A stretch of 64,000 nt of DNA from an uncultured Gammaproteobacteria bacterium (GTDB lineage: Bacteria; Patescibacteriota; Patescibacteriia; UBA11705; DATKZF01), in assembly GCA_964411255.1 (NCBI GenBank), contig CAYPKD010000003.1, positions 92,439-156,438 on the forward strand. The letters run 5' to 3'. Of the stretch, positions 5,510-47,703 are shown in pieces (within the stretch, counting starts at the first letter, position 1; each line of letters opens with the position of its first letter). Below the pieces are notes generated by a model. It ran no database searches, was not told the origin of the DNA, and worked only from the letters and a program-made list of their open reading frames with translations. The position numbers and the translations under genes were made by a program.

Positions 5510-5596
5510 TGGTGCCGGCGGACGGAGTCGAACCGTCACGGATTTTCATCCACAGGATTTTAAGTCCTGCGTGTCTACCAATTCCACCACGCCGGC
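5510..5596 (-). tRNA. tRNA-Leu(UAA), type II with long variable arm, CCA encoded
   Basis: Hand fold: acceptor GCCGGCG/CGCCGGC, anticodon stem CAGGA/TCCTG with loop CTTAAAA, T-arm GACGG-TTCGACT-CCGTC, discriminator A, CCA. Confidence 0.85.
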
Positions 5597-6686: not shown

Positions 6687-6772
6687 TGGTGCTGGGAGAG
6701 GGACTCGAACCCTCACGGCATTGAGCCAGGGGATTTTAAGTCCCCTGTGTCTACCAATTCCACCATCCCAGC
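6687..6772 (-). tRNA. tRNA-Leu(UAA), second divergent copy, type II, CCA encoded
   Basis: Hand fold: acceptor GCTGGGA/TCCCAGC, anticodon stem GGGGA/TCCCC with loop CTTAAAA, T-arm GAGGG-TTCGAGT-CCCTC. Confidence 0.85.
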
Positions 6773-13284: not shown

Positions 13285-13533
13285 TTAATGACTAGATTTA
13301 ACCAGATTTTCTTTTTCAATTTTCGTTAAACGTTTTATTTGCGCTTCTCTTTTCTGTGCTTCTGATCGGCTGTTAAATTTTTCAAAATAAACAATTTTTA
13401 CAGGTCTTCTATATTTTGTATATTTAGCTCCTTCGCCTTTATTATGCTTTTCTTCTCTAGCTTTAATATTTATACAAGATCCTGTGTATAACGAATTGTC
13501 ATTACATCGGGCAATGTATGTGAAGTATTTCAT
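13285..13533 (-). CDS. GIY-YIG nuclease superfamily protein (UPF0213/YhbQ-like)
   Basis: 82 aa. YIARCNDNSLYTGSCINIKAREEKHNKGEGAKYTKYRRPVKIVYFEKFNSRSEAQKRE matches the small GIY-YIG domain pattern. Confidence 0.75.
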   Translation of the reverse strand: MKYFTYIARCNDNSLYTGSCINIKAREEKHNKGEGAKYTKYRRPVKIVYFEKFNSRSEAQKREAQIKRLTKIEKENLVKSSH

Positions 13534-13614
13534 TTTAATATATAAAAGATTTAATTAATTTGTATCACTATTTATGGCTGTGCTATTCGAAGTTCGCCAA
13601 AGGCGAACGAAGAA

Positions 13615-13690
13615 TGGTGGACCTGACTGGACTTGAACCAGCGACCTCCTCCATGCCATGGAGGCGCTCTACCAACTAAGCTACAGGCCC
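13615..13690 (-). tRNA. tRNA-Ala(GGC) with G3:U70 identity pair
   Basis: Hand fold: GGGCCTG acceptor with G3-T70, anticodon loop ATGGCAT, T-arm GTCGC-TGGTTCAAGTCC region, discriminator A, CCA. Confidence 0.8.
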
Positions 13691-41208: not shown

Positions 41209-42102
41209 TTACCTGCGCAGAAACATTCTTTCAATTAAATGATCAGCCATTTTATCAAATGCAGCTTTCATCAGCCTTTCACCAAGTCGTGGATCAGTGG
41301 TCAAACGCTCAGTAAGCATTTCTTGAATTTTTTCAGCAAAATCTCGATCTCTGAACAGAACATCTACTGCCCGATCAACCAGATTAGCAAATTCTTGATT
41401 TTCTGCCATTCGTTCAGTAGGATCAAATCGATTTTGAATGTATTTTTGCATTTCATCTTTGGCTACTTCTTTAATCATATCTTCAACCTGCTGCTTAAAA
41501 GTAAAGTCAGAAAGCAATTGAGAAATTTGTTTATCCAGATTTCTCCAAAAATCATCTGGCATATTTTCATCCCAATCACATTCTTGATTATAATAATTTC
41601 TGACTACGGTTTTGATTTTTTCAAATATAGTTTTTTCAATTTCCGGCTCTTGAATAATTTTTTTCACCAGATTTTCTATATCGATTTGCTCAATAAGATT
41701 TTCATCATCAGGCAAATCATTTCCATCAATTGCAGCAATTGCATCAAACAATGTATTTTTAACTTTTTGAGTTACTTTATCTCTTATTTCTCTGTCCCTT
41801 TCAAATAATTGGGTAAGAATAGTTTCAATGTTGAAATTGTCTGGCATATAATCAATAATATCTCGTGATTCTATATCAGATTCAATTTCATTGGATCCAT
41901 CTTCACGTATTTTTTTGAGAAGAAGTGATTTTACTTTTTTTCGTAAAGCATCTTGAACTTCATCATCGCTTTCAAATAGATCAATAGCGATTTGTGAAAT
42001 ATCAGCATATTCTCTAATAGCCTCGTCGATGTCATCACTATTAGAATCAACTGATGCCAGTATTTGATCAATGATTTTTTGTACTACTTCTTGAGCTGAC
42101 AT
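41209..42102 (-). CDS. Hypothetical acidic protein (298 aa)
   Basis: Start moved from the track's TTG to the ATG at 42102, which has SD AGGGAGGG. D/E-rich, no family. Confidence 0.45.
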   Translation of the reverse strand: MSAQEVVQKIIDQILASVDSNSDDIDEAIREYADISQIAIDLFESDDEVQDALRKKVKSLLLKKIREDGSNEIESDIESRDIIDYMPDNFNIETILTQLFERDREIRDKVTQKVKNTLFDAIAAIDGNDLPDDENLIEQIDIENLVKKIIQEPEIEKTIFEKIKTVVRNYYNQECDWDENMPDDFWRNLDKQISQLLSDFTFKQQVEDMIKEVAKDEMQKYIQNRFDPTERMAENQEFANLVDRAVDVLFRDRDFAEKIQEMLTERLTTDPRLGERLMKAAFDKMADHLIERMFLRR

Positions 42103-42297
42103 TTGTCCCTCCCTTTTTTCAAAGGACAAAACCTGTTTTTAGGCACTTTGCCTAAATCAGCTTATTTTAACAAAAATTATAATTTTGTCAAATAAAAAAT
42201 AATGCGGTTTTTTAGCGTTATTTGCTTAATTGGTATTTTACAGTATAATAAAATCTGGTACATTTAAAATAACTCATAATAAATGAAAGGGGGCTTA

Positions 42298-43971
42298 ATG
42301 TTAAAAGTTGAGAAAATATGCAAATCATATAAGGGAGATCTTATTTTACAAGATATTTCTTTTGGAATTGGGAAAAATCAGAAAATCGCATTTATTGGGC
42401 CAAATGGTGCTGGAAAAACAACATTATTGAAAATTCTAGCTGATAAGGAAAAAGCTGATAGTGGAACAGTAAAAATTGATGATAATGTAGTAATAGGATA
42501 TTTGCCTCAGGAAATTGATACTGTTGGAGATGAGACAATTGATCAATATTTAAAAAGAGTTACTGGAATTGATATGTTAGAAGAAAAGATGCACAGATTA
42601 GAACAAGATTTAGAAGATGCAGAAAAATTAGAGCAATATTCAGAAATTCAACAGCAATTTTTACGTTTGGATGGATATAATTTTATTCAGAAAAGAGATA
42701 TAATATTAGCCGGATTTGGATTAGTTGAAATTTCTTCAGATAGATTAATAGCTTCATTGAGCGGTGGTCAAAAAGCCAAAGTGGCTTTGGCCGGGCTTTT
42801 ACTTCAAAGTCCAGATTTATTACTACTTGATGAGCCAACAAATAATTTGGATCTGGCTTCAATTATTTGGTTAGAAACTTTTTTGCAAAATATTAAGGTT
42901 TCTTGCATGATAATATCTCATGATCGTCATTTTTTAGATAAAATTGTATCAAAAGTATTTGAATTAGATTGGTTTGAAAGAAATATAAATGAATTTAATG
43001 GAACATATAGTGAATATAGAGATTATAAGGAGAAAAAAAGAAATAGAGAATTGGAAGAGGAGAAACAAATAAAAAGGGAGAAGAAGAGATTAAAAGAGAG
43101 TGTTACAAGGAAAAAAAGCTGGGCCAGTAAAGCATCAAAGCAGACAACCTCAGATAAAGATAAATATTTACGAGGATATAGACGAGACCAATCATCCAAA
43201 ATTACCAAAAGCGCAAAAGCAATCGAAAGTTATGTTGATAAAATAAAGGAAGTTCAAGTAACTCCAGAGCGGGGAAAACTGGAAATTCCAATAGTCGCCA
43301 AAGCGAGCAGAGCAAAGCATTCGATTTCATTACGAGATGTTCGGTATCAGTATGGAAATGTTTTTAGCTTAGGTCCGATTAGCCTACATATTGAATATGG
43401 ATCAAGAATTGCAATTCTTGGGCCAAATGGGTCGGGCAAATCTACTCTACTTCAAATAATCTCTCGGAAAATCATTATAGAAGATGGTGAAATAATGATT
43501 GGAAAATCATTAAAGTTCGGTAATTTAATGCAGGAGAATGAAAACATCGCCAAGGAAAAAACAATTTTTGAATTTTTTACTGAAAAAGAGATTGATAAGC
43601 AGAAAATATATTTTATATTGGATAAGTTTCAGTTTTTAGCCAAAGATGCAGATAAAAAAATAAATGATTTGAGTCCAGGCGAGAAAATGAGGATTTTATT
43701 AGCGTTATTTACCGTTCAAAATGTGAATGTTTTGATTTTAGATGAACCAACCAATCATTTGGATATCGAAGCGCTTGAAGCTTTAGAAAAATCATTGATA
43801 GATTATAGTGGGACAATAATTCTTGTATCTCACGATAGACTTTTTTTAGAAAATATATCTCCTTCTCATTTATTTATGATGAGTAATGGCAGTATTAAAG
43901 CCATTTCAAATCAAGATGATTATCAGAAATCATTAGAACGAGAAGCGAAGAAGCTAATAAAACAGCTTTAA
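42298..43971 (+). CDS. ABC-F family ATPase (two tandem ABC domains, no TMD) with long charged interdomain linker
   Basis: Two Walker A motifs (GPNGAGKTT, GPNGSGKST) and two signatures (LSGGQKAKV, LSPGEKMRI). K/R/E-rich linker of about 90 aa. SD aagggggc precedes the ATG at 42298. Confidence 0.85.
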   Translation: MLKVEKICKSYKGDLILQDISFGIGKNQKIAFIGPNGAGKTTLLKILADKEKADSGTVKIDDNVVIGYLPQEIDTVGDETIDQYLKRVTGIDMLEEKMHRLEQDLEDAEKLEQYSEIQQQFLRLDGYNFIQKRDIILAGFGLVEISSDRLIASLSGGQKAKVALAGLLLQSPDLLLLDEPTNNLDLASIIWLETFLQNIKVSCMIISHDRHFLDKIVSKVFELDWFERNINEFNGTYSEYRDYKEKKRNRELEEEKQIKREKKRLKESVTRKKSWASKASKQTTSDKDKYLRGYRRDQSSKITKSAKAIESYVDKIKEVQVTPERGKLEIPIVAKASRAKHSISLRDVRYQYGNVFSLGPISLHIEYGSRIAILGPNGSGKSTLLQIISRKIIIEDGEIMIGKSLKFGNLMQENENIAKEKTIFEFFTEKEIDKQKIYFILDKFQFLAKDADKKINDLSPGEKMRILLALFTVQNVNVLILDEPTNHLDIEALEALEKSLIDYSGTIILVSHDRLFLENISPSHLFMMSNGSIKAISNQDDYQKSLEREAKKLIKQL

Positions 43972-44011
43972 AAAAATTGAAAAAGGACACATATTACACA
44001 TGGTCCTTTTA

Positions 44012-45241
44012 TTATTGTAATTTTTTTTTCTCCAAATATTTAGTAAAAGATGTTATTCCGTATGGATCTTTGGCTTGAACATCTTTATGAAAGATATAAG
44101 CCCTTGCTTGGCATTCTCGAAGTCCATTATTTCTGAATTGGTTAAAAATTTTATGGTTTTGCCATTTTTGTAAAAAATGATCATCAAAGGCTGGTAATTC
44201 CCTGTCTTGATAATAGCCTGCAGCAACCAAAGATGGACAAGTTATCATTTTTCCATTCACATCTATCACCAGCCCTGATCTAGTGGCTCGGCATTCATTT
44301 CTTGGCGGAAGCCCAAGAAGTTTTGAAACGATTGCAGCATTGGAAATTCCAATTTTTTCACCTTTATTTTTTCTTAAATTAAATAAGGTGATAATTAAAT
44401 CAAAAAAGCTTTGCGGTTCTGGTATCAGATTTCTATGTTCAGGCTGAAAGGGTTTGAATAAATTGAAATTGCATGGGATTCCAAGTTGTCTGCAATAATC
44501 AATTATTTGTTGATAAAACAAGATATTAATTGAATTGATAGTAAAAGTAGTTTCCACAGCTAAGCCCTTGCTTGTCAATATCCGTAGAGTTTTGTCTACT
44601 TTTCTAAATACTCCTTTACCTCTGATTTTATCATGAATTTTTTTTGTTCCATCAAGGCTAACTAAAAAAGTTAATCTTTTGATTTTGGCTAATTGTTCGA
44701 GCATCTCATTATCAATTAAAGTTAGATTGGTAACAAGATTAATCGCCATTTGATTTTGCTGGCAAGCTTTAATTATTTTCAACAAGCCTTTATGCCTTAG
44801 GGGCTCCCCGCCTATTAGGCTGACTTCAAATATGCCATTTTTAGCCAAAAGATTTACGGTATCAATTGCTTTTTGTGTGGGAACAAATATTTCTTGGTGT
44901 TCAGCCTGAAAACAATGTTTACATCGGAGATTGCACGAAGTTGTAATTTCAAATTCTACGCCCAAAGGCATGTCAAGTTGCCTTTGTTCTAGGACATTAA
45001 AGCCAGACGGCTTTATTTCTTCCTGAATTTGTTGTAAAAATTCAATTACGTCATTGAGAGCCTGAAAAAGTGAAATGTGAAATTTTTTAGATATAGACTG
45101 AGCAATAGAGTCAATATCTTTTTCATGGTTAAAAAATAAATCTAAAATATTTTTTCCAATTTTATTAATTTCAATCACTCGTCTGGTATCTAAAAAGTAG
45201 GCTATATATTGTTCTTTTTCTTGCCTAAATCGCACTAACAT
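44012..45241 (-). CDS. Radical SAM / SPASM(twitch)-domain enzyme with N-terminal PqqD-like RRE region; putative RiPP maturase
   Basis: CNLRCKHC (CxxxCxxC) at about residue 100. The C-terminal Cys cluster (NECRAT.., ITCPSL, RECQAR) is consistent with SPASM/twitch. The N-terminal 90 aa (IEINKIGKNILDLFFNHEKDIDSIAQSISKKFHISLFQALNDVIEFL) resembles PqqD/RRE. SD AAAGGAG precedes the ATG. Confidence 0.8.
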   Translation of the reverse strand: MLVRFRQEKEQYIAYFLDTRRVIEINKIGKNILDLFFNHEKDIDSIAQSISKKFHISLFQALNDVIEFLQQIQEEIKPSGFNVLEQRQLDMPLGVEFEITTSCNLRCKHCFQAEHQEIFVPTQKAIDTVNLLAKNGIFEVSLIGGEPLRHKGLLKIIKACQQNQMAINLVTNLTLIDNEMLEQLAKIKRLTFLVSLDGTKKIHDKIRGKGVFRKVDKTLRILTSKGLAVETTFTINSINILFYQQIIDYCRQLGIPCNFNLFKPFQPEHRNLIPEPQSFFDLIITLFNLRKNKGEKIGISNAAIVSKLLGLPPRNECRATRSGLVIDVNGKMITCPSLVAAGYYQDRELPAFDDHFLQKWQNHKIFNQFRNNGLRECQARAYIFHKDVQAKDPYGITSFTKYLEKKKLQ

Positions 45242-45266
45242 TGGCCGCTCCTTTTTGGGTTATAAA

Positions 45267-45290
45267 AGAGGTAATGATGAAATTACCTCT
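45267..45290 (-). terminator. Intergenic hairpin between precursor-like gene and radical SAM gene (attenuator/partial terminator)
   Basis: agaggtaat-gatgaa-attacctct followed by ttttat on the transcribed strand. Confidence 0.45.
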
Positions 45291-45302
45291 GCCAGTCTGT
45301 TG

Positions 45303-45515
45303 TCATGGCAATTTGATAACACATGACGCCCCCTTTTTTTTGAGATTGAGGGTTGTTTCGAGTCTGATCAGGGCAGACGCGAATGCTTTCCCAGCGTGTT
45401 CTCCTGATTGTAATCCCCCAGGAGAACCACCGCAGCTTGTTAGGCAGCAACCTGATTCTACGGGTTCTGGAAAGTAGCCGCGTCTAAGTACCTTTGGTTT
45501 TTGGTACTTCCTCAT
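45303..45515 (-). CDS. Candidate RiPP precursor peptide (70 aa; Cys/Gly/Pro/Ser-rich core)
   Basis: Strong SD AAGGAGGA lies 7 nt before the ATG. Sequence: MRKYQKPKVLRRGYFPEPVESGCCLTSCGGSPGGLQSGEHAGKAFASALIRLETTLNLKKKGASCVIKLP. GC-rich codons. Stop is 60 nt upstream of the maturase start. Confidence 0.5.
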   Translation of the reverse strand: MRKYQKPKVLRRGYFPEPVESGCCLTSCGGSPGGLQSGEHAGKAFASALIRLETTLNLKKKGASCVIKLP

Positions 45516-45643
45516 TGTGAGGTCCTCCTTTTTGTGAAGGTTCTAGAAATGGGGTAAAATTTTTACCAAGGACTGCTTTAAGCTTATGAAATATATTTAT
45601 TTTTGTCAAATAAAAAAATGCGGTTTTTTCGCATTATTTTTTA

Positions 45644-46462
45644 TTATTTAATATTATTAATAAGTTGTTTAACTTTATTTTCATCAATTCTCTGGTTATA
45701 AGGCTTTATATTTATTTCTTTTTTATCTTTTACGCCTTTTTTAAGTGAAGTACTTACAATTGCTCCGTTTGCGTATTGAAAAAATTCTTGAACATTATTC
45801 TTGTTTAATCCACTGCCAATTAAAATTGGAAAATCATTAACAGAATGTTTAATCATTTGAAGTTCTTGCATATCCGGAGCATTGCCAGTCCAGCTGCCAG
45901 TGATTATTAAAGCATCAGATCCATTTTCTATTGCCAATTGAGCTGACGTTTTTAAATCATGGATTGATAAAAGTTCAGCATGTTTAACTTGAATATCTGT
46001 AAATAAAGCTATATCTTCAGCATTGATTGATTTTTGATAATTAATAATTTGTCTAGCATTTCCATGTATAATTCCATAATCAGTTTTGACTGAATCAATG
46101 AAAACAGGAATTCTAATAAATTTCAGATTTAATATTTTCGCAATTGATAAAGCAGTTTTATAATCATTCCATAAAACACTAATACCAATTGGCAGCTTGG
46201 TTGCTTTTTTAATTTGTTCACCCAAATATGTCATTGAAGCTATTTGTGCTGGATCAATAAATTCTTTATGTGGAAAATCATAATTATTTTCAAAAATAAT
46301 AGCCTTTGCTCCTCCATTTTCAAAGGCTATTTGATCTTTTAAAGCATTTTGTATGGCAATTTCAAATCCTGGAAAATTTTCATAACCTAAAAGAGGTGGA
46401 AAATGAATAGCACCGATTATTACATTTTTATTTTTTTCAAATATTTTTTGAAATTTATACAT
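45644..46462 (-). CDS. BtpA/SgcQ-family TIM-barrel protein
   Basis: 272 aa. GAIHFPPLLGY and overall similarity to BtpA family proteins. Confidence 0.6.
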   Translation of the reverse strand: MYKFQKIFEKNKNVIIGAIHFPPLLGYENFPGFEIAIQNALKDQIAFENGGAKAIIFENNYDFPHKEFIDPAQIASMTYLGEQIKKATKLPIGISVLWNDYKTALSIAKILNLKFIRIPVFIDSVKTDYGIIHGNARQIINYQKSINAEDIALFTDIQVKHAELLSIHDLKTSAQLAIENGSDALIITGSWTGNAPDMQELQMIKHSVNDFPILIGSGLNKNNVQEFFQYANGAIVSTSLKKGVKDKKEINIKPYNQRIDENKVKQLINNIK

Positions 46463-46661
46463 AATAAAAAAATAACGCTGCTTAGCGCTATTTTCTTAAT
46501 CTTCGAGTATGTTTAGCTAATTGCTTGCCTTTTTTAGTTTTTTTCTTTGCATGCTTAGTTCTGGCTCTTGCTGCGCTATTGTGTCCCATATGATTGAAAT
46601 TGTTATTTGTAATACACTTTATTCTATCGTATTTTTTAAATCTGTGCAAGTGCAAATTGTT

Positions 46662-46931
46662 TTATTGGGACAAAGCATTTAAATCGTCAACCTCAATATT
46701 TTGAATATCAGTTTTTAATTTTTGTAGATCTTTTTCTGTTATATCCATTTCAGTATCAGATGTGGCTATTTTTGAATTAGTTGGCTGCGTCTGTTCAATG
46801 TTTGGCTGGCCTAAATCAATTTTAATACCATCCAGTTGTTGTGTTGAAGAAGATTGTTCAGTTTTTTTGCCACAAGCAGATAAAGATAATGCAAAAATTA
46901 AAATTAAGACTATAGAAAGTATTTTTTTCAT
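46662..46931 (-). CDS. Small lipoprotein
   Basis: Signal peptide with LSACG lipobox. Confidence 0.45.
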   Translation of the reverse strand: MKKILSIVLILIFALSLSACGKKTEQSSSTQQLDGIKIDLGQPNIEQTQPTNSKIATSDTEMDITEKDLQKLKTDIQNIEVDDLNALSQ

Positions 46932-46932
46932 A

Positions 46933-47703
46933 TTATTTTGTTATTAAATTAAATGCATGTTCTAATTGCTGCTGTGCGTTTAGCAGGTTTGTTTTTGCCT
47001 GACGCAGATAATTGTTTCCTTCACTGAATTTAATTAAGGGCGTACCAGGTAATTTTACTTGTTTATATGAACTTTCTGCAAAATCAACCTTATCCTGCGC
47101 TGTTTGCAATTCTGTTTTGGCTACATTTAATTTATTTATTATTTCATCACTGTCTGGAAGTTTTTCAGCAGCCGCCCGAATCTTTTGTTCATACGTTTTT
47201 GCTGTTTCAATTAAATCATTTCCAATACTCACCCACATTGATCCAGAATTTCTGGCAACATCAGTTAATAGCTCCAAATAAGACTTTATCATTTTTAGAA
47301 AAGTTGTTCCTAAATTCAGTTGCGAATCAATATTTTTAACATCTGTTCGTAAAGTATCTATTTTTGCTAGATTTGTTTTTACATCAGTTTCAATATTGGT
47401 TTGAATGGTATCTGGCACATTTGGATTTTCCTGAGCTTCAAGTTTTTTCCAGCCAAGCCAGGCCTCAGCTTCATCCAGCGCAGCTTCTAATACTTCTTTT
47501 CCTGTGTCAATCACTGCTTGCTCATTTTCATCAGATTTGTCAGTTGCATAATCAAGCTTTGCTTCCTTATGATCAGCCTCAGCTGCCATTCGAATTTTTA
47601 TAGCATTAAGCCAATCTTGTTTAAGCTGATTTGAAGTTGCAGCTTGTGAAATTCCAGGTAATAACAACATCGTAATTAATAATACTAAAAGTATTTTTTT
47701 CAT
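46933..47703 (-). CDS. Secreted coiled-coil protein of unknown function
   Basis: Signal peptide followed by helical repeats. Confidence 0.45.
   Translation of the reverse strand: MKKILLVLLITMLLLPGISQAATSNQLKQDWLNAIKIRMAAEADHKEAKLDYATDKSDENEQAVIDTGKEVLEAALDEAEAWLGWKKLEAQENPNVPDTIQTNIETDVKTNLAKIDTLRTDVKNIDSQLNLGTTFLKMIKSYLELLTDVARNSGSMWVSIGNDLIETAKTYEQKIRAAAEKLPDSDEIINKLNVAKTELQTAQDKVDFAESSYKQVKLPGTPLIKFSEGNNYLRQAKTNLLNAQQQLEHAFNLITK

Follow-up and report, generated by a model that had tools for sequence, protein, structure and literature searches.

Analysis of a 64,000-nucleotide stretch of DNA (hereafter the window; positions 92,439 to 156,438 of contig CAYPKD010000003.1, from an assembly labelled as an uncultured Gammaproteobacteria bacterium and placed by GTDB in the Patescibacteriota) identified a short peptide gene with a cysteine-rich core followed by the gene of a radical S-adenosylmethionine (SAM) enzyme. 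Precursor and enzyme are a real peptide-modification pair, present mainly in bacteria of the candidate phyla radiation (CPR), and are very probably the precursor and maturase of a ribosomally made peptide that is modified after translation (RiPP). The adjoining gene of an ATPase of the ABC-F family is likely a functional partner of this pair. Whether the three genes form a cassette of precursor, dedicated radical SAM maturase and antibiotic-resistance-type ABC-F, with a product that acts on the ribosome, is about evenly balanced. A first-pass annotation of the sequence had described a minimal two-gene RiPP-like locus here, and every sequence feature that it described was found where it had been placed. 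The parts are of known kinds, namely a RiPP precursor, a radical SAM enzyme with a RiPP recognition element (RRE), an ABC-F protein and, in relatives, an Erm-type methyltransferase. Neither the family libraries nor the searchable literature yielded the precursor family, the maturase family or the joint occurrence of the two with ribosome-protection genes in CPR bacteria; literature searches on motif strings, CPR/Patescibacteria, ABC-F, Erm and self-resistance topics (subscription journals being outside their scope) returned no description of such a modified-peptide system.

Related loci were collected in two sets. The first was selected with the radical SAM protein and comprised orthologues of the 409-aa protein, one genome per species, at 41-60% identity (L001-L019); the 61 remaining loci selected in this way encode distant radical SAM enzymes. 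The second set came from a peptide-centred search of metagenome contigs. Gene neighbours were analysed in 54 non-redundant loci.

The precursor gene (45303-45515, minus strand), recognized from its open reading frame (ORF) and translation, its homologues and a codon test, starts with an ATG at 45515-45513 and ends with a TGA at 45305-45303. It encodes 70 aa, MRKYQKPKVLRRGYFPEPVESGCCLTSCGGSPGG and onward into an amphipathic tail. A Shine-Dalgarno sequence, AAGGAGGA (45523-45530, minus strand), precedes the ATG with a 7-nt spacer. A candidate promoter can be read further upstream (TTGACA, 17 nt, TAAGCT; 45581-45609, minus strand); its -10 element is weak, the whole falls below the threshold of the consensus scan, and the assignment is tentative. 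A small ORF with the same core was found upstream of the radical SAM gene in all 17 orthologous loci that had enough upstream DNA and in none of the 61 distant loci. In the peptide-selected set the radical SAM gene follows directly after the precursor wherever the contig permits, and the pairing was seen in about 50 of 57 loci. A profile search for the peptide returned 175 clusters at 90% identity, all of them "hypothetical" or unnamed. An exhaustive search returned 38 representatives at 50% identity; at least two of them are spurious (P0381 and P0382, large proteins with low-complexity or repeat matches), and 36 remain without these two.

The family consensus, derived from the 120 listed sequences among the 175 clusters, reads M-K-x-Y-x-K-P-x-[VI], about 8 further residues, P-E-P-V-E-[SAT]-G-C-C-[LF]-[RT]-S-C-G-G-x-P and a variable, amphipathic, Lys/Glu-rich tail, with lengths of 47-88 aa (median 58 aa). 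Within the core, E-x-G-C-C-[LF]-[RT]-S-C-G-G-x-P, the residues E, G, C, C, S, C, G, G and P do not vary in any of the 120 proteins or of 49 loci. The corresponding codons in the window, E20-S-G-C-C-L-T-S-C-G-G-S-P32 (45420-45458, minus strand), are presumed from this invariance to be the site of modification. The leader codons Y4-Q-K-P7 (45494-45506, minus strand) match the family consensus Y-x-K-P-x-[VI], in which P is kept in 111, Y in 87 and V or I in 106 of the 120 sequences; judging from this conservation, the motif is the presumed RRE-binding element. The closest relative, L081, has a precursor that is 84% identical. When 18 precursors were scanned against Pfam and NCBIfam there was no real match, the hits to PELP1 and DUF5972 (E of about 0.01-0.1) being noise, and these library scans place the precursor outside SCIFF, PQQ, subtilosin and every other family in the two libraries, as had been suspected for the three named. 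The ENA gene calls of the source contig omit the precursor and NCBI is not among the sources that hold the protein, so automated annotation misses the substrate of the system. A precursor-like ORF on one GC-richer contig (L102:4983-7385) has the full core (…ESVESGCCLRSCGGSPAP…); after it are encoded an HExxH protein and a different radical SAM enzyme, the latter without an N-terminal RRE. This may be a variant system outside the CPR.

Because structured RNAs classically show up as GC-rich islands in AT-rich genomes, an RNA reading of the patch was tested first, in which a riboswitch or small RNA would lie before the radical SAM gene and the ORF would be accidental. In its favour, GC over the ORF is 0.47-0.55 against 0.33 for the window, both strands of the patch fold better than shuffled sequences (z = -3.4 and -4.3), and GC at third codon positions is 0.42 against 0.13-0.25 in the neighbouring genes. 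An Rfam search of 43000-47000 found nothing at E <= 1, however, and a search of the whole window at gathering thresholds found nothing relevant. A codon-position test on 16 codons around the core in 49 non-redundant loci gave minor-base fractions of 0.17, 0.10 and 0.54 at positions 1, 2 and 3. At the invariant residues all four codons each of Gly and of Pro and both of Cys occur, and the codon of the invariant Ser alternates between AGY and TCN. Third-position variation, synonymous codon use and the Ser switch together demonstrate selection on the protein. The start codon and Shine-Dalgarno sequence are also kept among homologues, and amino acids are conserved while nucleotides diverge. The RNA reading is refuted by this pattern and retains a negligible probability. 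An antisense ORF (45241-45477, plus strand) was rejected as well: it is open in 29 of 49 loci from composition alone, its variable sites are the third positions of the sense frame, and the sense frame is the conserved one. The first explanation offered for the GC-richness, that it stems from peptide composition, holds for about 60% of the excess; the remainder stands outside it, with 0.486 observed against 0.42 expected under the codon usage of the neighbours.

The maturase gene (44012-45241, minus strand) encodes 409 aa and was assigned from Pfam matches, invariant residues, an AlphaFold2 model and Foldseek. Residues 1-75 are a PqqD-type RRE, with a Pfam PqqD match at 17-74 that scores 28.0 bits against a gathering score of 23.4. 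In the AlphaFold2 model (mean pLDDT 90.6) residues 3-8, 11-16 and 21-25 are strands and residues 27-38, 43-54 and 58-75 are helices (pLDDT about 90-97), and this predicted succession of three strands and three helices is the topology of an RRE. The Pfam Radical_SAM match has an E-value of 7.6e-19, and the cysteines of the SAM cluster, C103-x3-C107-x2-C110 (CX3CX2C), are invariant in 23 homologues. Only three cysteines are invariant in the C-terminal domain (C317, C335 and C377). C317-x12-G330-x4-C335 corresponds to the first half of the SPASM/twitch signature; only one further cysteine joins it, which makes the domain twitch-like. Of the SPASM/twitch-like C-terminus first proposed, the twitch part therefore stands and the SPASM part does not: Pfam SPASM gave no match in the window maturase, and the set of seven or eight SPASM cysteines, including CX2CX5CX3C, is absent.

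Structure and sequence searches agreed on the relatives of this enzyme. The best Foldseek matches, all full-length alignments, were SuiB (1.5e-21), CteB (1.7e-17) and SkfB (1.9e-16), and a sequence profile search of the PDB ranked SkfB (2e-29), SuiB and CteB first, ahead of the weaker matches to anSME, MoaA and PqqE. We take SuiB, CteB and SkfB to be the three solved RRE-bearing RiPP radical SAM enzymes. No NCBIfam model reached its cut-off and all matches were to peptide or cofactor maturases far below, so the maturase family is without a name. The best of these was MftC (TIGR03962; 88 bits against 265). The models of non-RiPP radical SAM families (anaerobic sulfatase maturase, MoaA, NirJ/Ahb, PqqE) scored 55-75 bits against cut-offs of 350-650, and the SCIFF maturase model was not among the top 25 NCBIfam matches, all of them below cut-off. 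A degraded cassette was seen at L130:248-1576, where the precursor is intact, an Erm-type methyltransferase gene lies on the opposite strand and the radical SAM gene is reduced to a 75-aa N-terminal (RRE) remnant.

The precursor stop and the ATG of the maturase gene (45241) are separated by 61 nt, within which lies a hairpin (45267-45290, minus strand) made of a perfect 9-bp stem, AGAGGTAAT (45290-45282), a loop TTCATC and ATTACCTCT (45275-45267), followed by TTTAT. It folds at -9.6 kcal/mol; for the entire spacer the value is -14.0 kcal/mol, with z = -3.2 relative to shuffled sequences. With so short a T run (4 T in 8), the hairpin was not picked up by the scan for consensus terminators. Among 39 related loci with a precursor-maturase gap of at least 40 nt, a hairpin with a folding energy of -8 kcal/mol or lower occurs at the same position in 33, with unrelated sequences; the intergenic fold beats shuffles (p <= 0.05) in 32 and a T-rich tail is present in 25. 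In the subfamily with a GCCF core the gap is 3-29 nt and holds no hairpin. The two genes are thus apparently translationally coupled there, and the hairpin is a conserved feature of the GCCL branch. From its sequence and position the hairpin is best described as a putative partial terminator or RNA-stability element between precursor and maturase, an arrangement that would fit many RiPP operons, in which the precursor exceeds the enzyme. The comparisons given above thus uphold the central claims of the first-pass annotation: the small ORF is a conserved peptide gene co-conserved with the radical SAM gene, its enzyme carries an RRE by profile and by fold, and the intergenic hairpin is conserved in position.

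On the far side of the maturase gene, and convergent with it, lies the ABC-F gene (42298-43971, plus strand; 557 aa). Its ATG follows the Shine-Dalgarno sequence AAAGGGGG, and 42298 is a likelier start than the alternative ATG at 42283. Between the two convergent genes a further hairpin, AAAAGGACACATATTACACATGGTCCTTTT (43981-44010), folds at -10.2 kcal/mol and is likely a bidirectional terminator. The protein has two complete nucleotide-binding domains (Pfam ABC_tran twice) joined by a long inter-domain linker, has no membrane domain, and keeps the Walker A, signature, Walker B and H-loop motifs intact in both halves. It passes the NCBIfam model NF000355, "ribosomal protection-like ABC-F" (445 bits against 380), and 33 of the 33 cassette-linked orthologues tested match this model at E <= 1e-90. 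None of the models for specific resistance subfamilies (Vga, Msr, Lsa, Sal, OptrA, CplR and the producer type) was passed. In aligned span the protein differs from the Msr, Lsa, Sal, CplR and TlrC/CarA/OleB/SrmB models by no more than 4 residues and from the VmlR, VgaA and MsrE chains by no more than 1, and it exceeds the EttA, YbiT, Uup and YheS models by 18-28 residues. These lengths point indirectly, through aligned spans, to the extended inter-domain arm of resistance-type proteins. A 306-aa Asp/Glu-rich acidic protein of repetitive appearance is encoded divergently from the ABC-F gene (41209-42129, minus strand) and is not conserved beside the cassette in other loci.

An ABC-F gene adjoined the radical SAM gene in 17 of 20 loci in the first clustering of neighbourhoods and adjoined the pair in 41 of the 54 non-redundant loci, upstream or downstream and on either strand; it may even lie between the two genes (L111, L131). 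In 5 of the 13 loci without an ABC-F gene the contig ends within about 1 kb of the radical SAM gene. The reverse test was made on nine ABC-F homologues of 43-57% identity, eight of which adjoin genes for a small cysteine-containing peptide and a radical SAM enzyme. Three of these have the cassette type of the window (L136, L144, L145), five have a second pair (L138-L143), and the ninth homologue (L146) has neither. A triad of precursor, radical SAM and ABC-F genes on one strand was also seen in metagenome-assembled genomes (MAGs) labelled Clostridia, Clostridiales or Clostridiaceae (L012-L014), and the same one-strand triad occurs in six further loci with Clostridia-type MAG labels (L110, L112, L113, L115, L116 and L119). 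If the binning is right, the triad has moved between phyla as a unit.

The second pair belongs to a cassette of its own (L138:2423-6677, L140:2416-6683, L142:2426-6674, L143:1500-6677 and L141:2229-6677), in which the genes of a 60-68-aa protein, a 443-aa SPASM radical SAM enzyme, a methylthioadenosine phosphorylase and an ABC-F protein follow one another, often with the gene of a PRK-family kinase behind the ABC-F gene. The small protein is highly conserved (…GIVKLCGxQGCCPTVDF…VVLKDDFGGxVxLT…W..LK, with the motif L-C-G-x-Q-G-C-C-P-T) and gave no Pfam or NCBIfam match; a G-C-C-x-T element is common to it and the window peptide. The enzyme resembles FibroRumin, PapB and SCIFF maturases and is 24% identical to the window enzyme, and the two pairs are non-orthologous. 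About 2 kb past the ABC-F gene of L138 (L138:8481-10804, and likewise in L139), a 30-aa ORF is followed by a 725-aa fused nitroreductase-YcaO protein, which is an arrangement of the azoline type of RiPP. Klebsazolicin and phazolicin, which are of that type, bind the ribosomal exit tunnel.

A methyltransferase of the Erm type, about 290 aa long, is encoded directly beside the cassette in 10 non-redundant loci, and in three of these (L001, L122 and L126) it occupies the usual position of the ABC-F gene. These proteins pass NF000499 (226-240 bits against 212) and score 148-175 bits with the KsgA model (cut-off 171), that is, 60-85 bits under the Erm score. The best PDB matches were ErmC' (102 bits) and ErmE (92 bits), ahead of KsgA/Dim1. 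A predicted DUF2268 Zn protease was found in 6 of the 54 loci and an HExxH protein in 3. A seven-transmembrane sensor histidine kinase gene adjoins the cassette in about five (L010, L017, L123, L128 and L145). Neither an Erm, a DUF2268 protease, an HExxH protein nor the second cassette was found in the 64-kb window. These surveys change the picture of a minimal two-gene system without a protease: the ABC-F is a conserved third component, and relatives add predicted Zn proteases and the methyltransferase. The two neighbours of the pair had been left outside the system in the first-pass annotation, which proved right for the BtpA-like gene and wrong for the ABC-F gene. The former, a BtpA/SgcQ-family gene just upstream of the precursor (45644-46462, minus strand), was rejected as a partner, being absent from L081, which otherwise has the same upstream genes, and from every other locus; the gene was inserted or lost in a particular lineage and lies outside the cassette. 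Directly downstream of the cassette ABC-F gene of L145 (L145:6756-7244) a 162-aa SpoU-family RNA 2'-O-methyltransferase is encoded. It is probably a TrmL-like enzyme with a housekeeping role; resistance to thiopeptides is known from some members of the SpoU family.

The following sequence of events can be proposed. The precursor would be transcribed from its own promoter, and the hairpin would pass part of this transcription into the maturase gene, or stabilise the short transcript, so that substrate exceeds enzyme. The PqqD-like N-terminal domain of the maturase would bind the leader at Y-x-K-P-x-V/I. The radical SAM core, together with the three-cysteine twitch cluster, would then cross-link the core of the peptide; this cluster probably leaves an iron site open to a thiol of the substrate. 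In CteB the auxiliary cluster has three cysteine ligands and an open site that is taken by a substrate cysteine. From the core sequence, and by analogy with such enzymes, the likeliest products would be intramolecular thioether bridges from the three cysteines, with the invariant Glu and Ser as candidate acceptors or recognition residues. The mature peptide would act on the large ribosomal subunit near the peptidyl-transferase centre (PTC) and exit tunnel. The ABC-F protein would dislodge it from the ribosomes of the producer, and in some lineages methylation of 23S rRNA by the Erm-type enzyme would serve instead or in addition.

Erm methyltransferases and resistance-type ABC-F proteins are the two classic means of self-protection in producers of antibiotics that bind the PTC or exit tunnel. 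The lincomycin cluster carries the 23S rRNA methyltransferase LmrB and the ABC-F protein LmrC (PMC8546547). Because Erm and ABC-F genes are linked to the peptide-maturase pair repeatedly and irrespective of position, the reading with the most support is a ribosome-targeting product. A ribosomal target with ABC-F and Erm as immunity is put forward tentatively, at somewhat less than an even balance, and several observations weigh against it. The target is read from neighbouring genes only. The ABC-F family is much the larger, with 7,836 matches at 1e-40 against 185 for the radical SAM enzyme at 1e-10, and one ABC-F homologue (L146) stands without the cassette, so the ABC-F could be a translation factor of general use in CPR bacteria. 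The NF000355 model is broad, and passing it is no proof of resistance. The window ABC-F gene has a short 5' leader, unlike many inducible resistance ABC-F genes, and no attenuator was found upstream of it (leader fold z = -0.9). The margin that separates Erm from KsgA is moderate, the window itself is without an Erm, and two loci with full flanks (L003 and L100) have neither ABC-F nor Erm. No exporter is conserved at the cassette loci and only about 9 of 54 have a protease; both would be unusual for a secreted antibiotic.

Several of these points would be expected if peptide and radical SAM enzyme were self-contained, giving an intracellular modified peptide, cofactor or signal in the manner of SCIFF, mycofactocin or PQQ, while the ABC-F did housekeeping work and its adjacency reflected an old gene order or the need to translate a Pro/Gly/Glu-rich precursor. 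We consider this rather unlikely. The great excess of ABC-F homologues over radical SAM homologues, the solitary L146 gene, the missing exporter, the short and apparently constitutive ABC-F leader and the mycofactocin maturase as best sub-threshold NCBIfam match all count for it, as does the statement in PMC12992588 (citing Chadani 2024 and Takada 2024) that housekeeping ABC-F proteins resolve sequences that are hard to translate. The position and strand of the ABC-F gene vary freely while the adjacency is kept, however, which indicates selection for linkage and not a frozen gene order. The triad recurs in the Clostridia-labelled MAGs, Erm joins or replaces the ABC-F in a way that a housekeeping role does not predict, and the linker has the length found in resistance-type proteins. 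The MftC score is far under its cut-off, and the precursor has neither the C-terminal Gly-Val-Tyr of mycofactocin nor the Glu/Tyr pattern of PQQ. It is improbable, in turn, that the modified peptide signals to other cells or to a host and that the ABC-F is a ribosome-acting regulator, in the way that LmrC switches on lincomycin synthesis. The sensor histidine kinase beside some cassettes would suit such a role, but only about 10% of loci have it, without any conserved response regulator; the co-occurrence of Erm suits protection better, and the window ABC-F gene lacks an upstream attenuator. A small ORF and hairpin upstream of a gene, in a neighbourhood with ABC-F and sometimes Erm, also recall a regulatory leader peptide that senses ribosome-stalling antibiotics and is no enzyme substrate. 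Control of this sort is usual for erm and ABC-F resistance genes, and resistance ABC-F genes are commonly under ribosome-mediated attenuation (PMC8546547). The gene downstream of the ORF, however, is always that of the radical SAM enzyme and never ABC-F or Erm, which are often on the other strand or side. The ORF has 47-88 codons with an invariant, cysteine-rich core of 13 residues, whereas leader peptides are short and little conserved. The enzyme encoded behind it carries a peptide-binding RRE, and the GCCF subfamily has short gaps and no hairpin. The probability left to this explanation is very small.

A broader form of the ribosome-targeting proposal, held more tentatively still, is that CPR bacteria and a few Clostridia make an unrecognised class of radical-SAM-cross-linked peptides that bind the large ribosomal subunit at or near the macrolide/PTC site, with a dedicated resistance-type ABC-F and/or Erm as immunity. 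Were this true, CPR bacteria would have their first assigned antibiotic family and RiPPs their first class with ABC-F plus Erm self-resistance, and the second pair of cysteine peptide and radical SAM enzyme would be a sister class for the same site. The genomes of CPR bacteria are tiny, and these bacteria are regarded as poor in natural products; the cassette nonetheless persists across many of their lineages. A ribosome-targeting product would offer a new peptide scaffold against a validated drug target, would mark an environmental reservoir of the ABC-F/Erm resistance pair and possibly its natural raison d'être, and might be a tool of episymbiotic CPR cells against hosts or competitors. Even if the target inference fails, the precursor and the twitch-type maturase are new families outside Pfam and NCBIfam, and the precursor is one that gene callers often miss.

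Two other observations were made in the window. An Rfam match to HPnc0260, a Helicobacter antisense RNA (13524-13653, plus strand; 60.5 against a gathering score of 59), overlaps a tRNA-Ala gene on the opposite strand (13615-13690) and is for that reason probably spurious. Two tRNA-Leu(TAA) genes (5510-5596 and 6687-6772, minus strand) lie about 1.1 kb apart with a tRNA-Gly gene between them and may be a local duplication.

Among known systems, SCIFF and other ranthipeptides (CteA/CteB, PapA/PapB) share with the window pair a short cysteine-rich precursor directly upstream of an RRE-bearing radical SAM enzyme, a small cassette that is often without a dedicated protease or exporter, and wide conservation in one lineage; CteB is also among the best structural matches of the maturase. 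The window precursor differs in having three invariant cysteines in mid-peptide, a long C-terminal tail and no match to the SCIFF or any other precursor model. The maturase is far below the cut-offs of the SCIFF and PapB models, and SCIFF maturases have a two-cluster SPASM domain where the window enzyme has a three-cysteine, twitch-like one. Linkage to ABC-F or Erm is, to our knowledge, not a feature of SCIFF loci. SkfB resembles the maturase as an RRE/radical SAM/twitch enzyme that forms a cysteine thioether and as its best PDB profile match. The SkfB model, in contrast, gave 60 bits against a cut-off of 300, the precursors are unrelated, and the skf operon brings export and immunity genes of its own that differ in kind. 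SuiB is the best full-length fold match (about 400 aligned columns) and has the same order of RRE, radical SAM core and auxiliary cluster; it differs in forming a Lys-Trp carbon-carbon bond on a KxxxW precursor, in its full SPASM domain and in its identity of only 16-18% to the window enzyme. Mycofactocin is set apart by a maturase model (TIGR03962) that the window enzyme does not pass and by precursors ending in Gly-Val-Tyr, where those of the window family end in variable Lys/Glu-rich tails.

Inhibition of the bacterial ribosome by RiPPs is documented (PMC6783444, PMC11451635) for klebsazolicin and phazolicin in the exit tunnel, for thiopeptides and for lariocidin. The window product would fall into the same functional class. 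These peptides are made by YcaO or lasso machinery with no radical SAM enzyme, unlike the proposed window product, and none is from the CPR. Their self-protection, as far as we know, is by export or other means and not by ABC-F plus Erm. The macrolide and lincosamide producers (LmrB with LmrC; TlrC, CarA, OleB, SrmB) resemble the cassette loci in carrying an Erm-type enzyme and an ABC-F protein inside the cluster (PMC8546547), and the producer-type model NF000171 aligns end to end with the window ABC-F with a length difference of 4 residues. At 310 bits against a cut-off of 800 the window protein is nevertheless not a member of the producer-type clade, and the macrolide and lincosamide clusters make polyketides or amino-sugar antibiotics, in actinomycetes.

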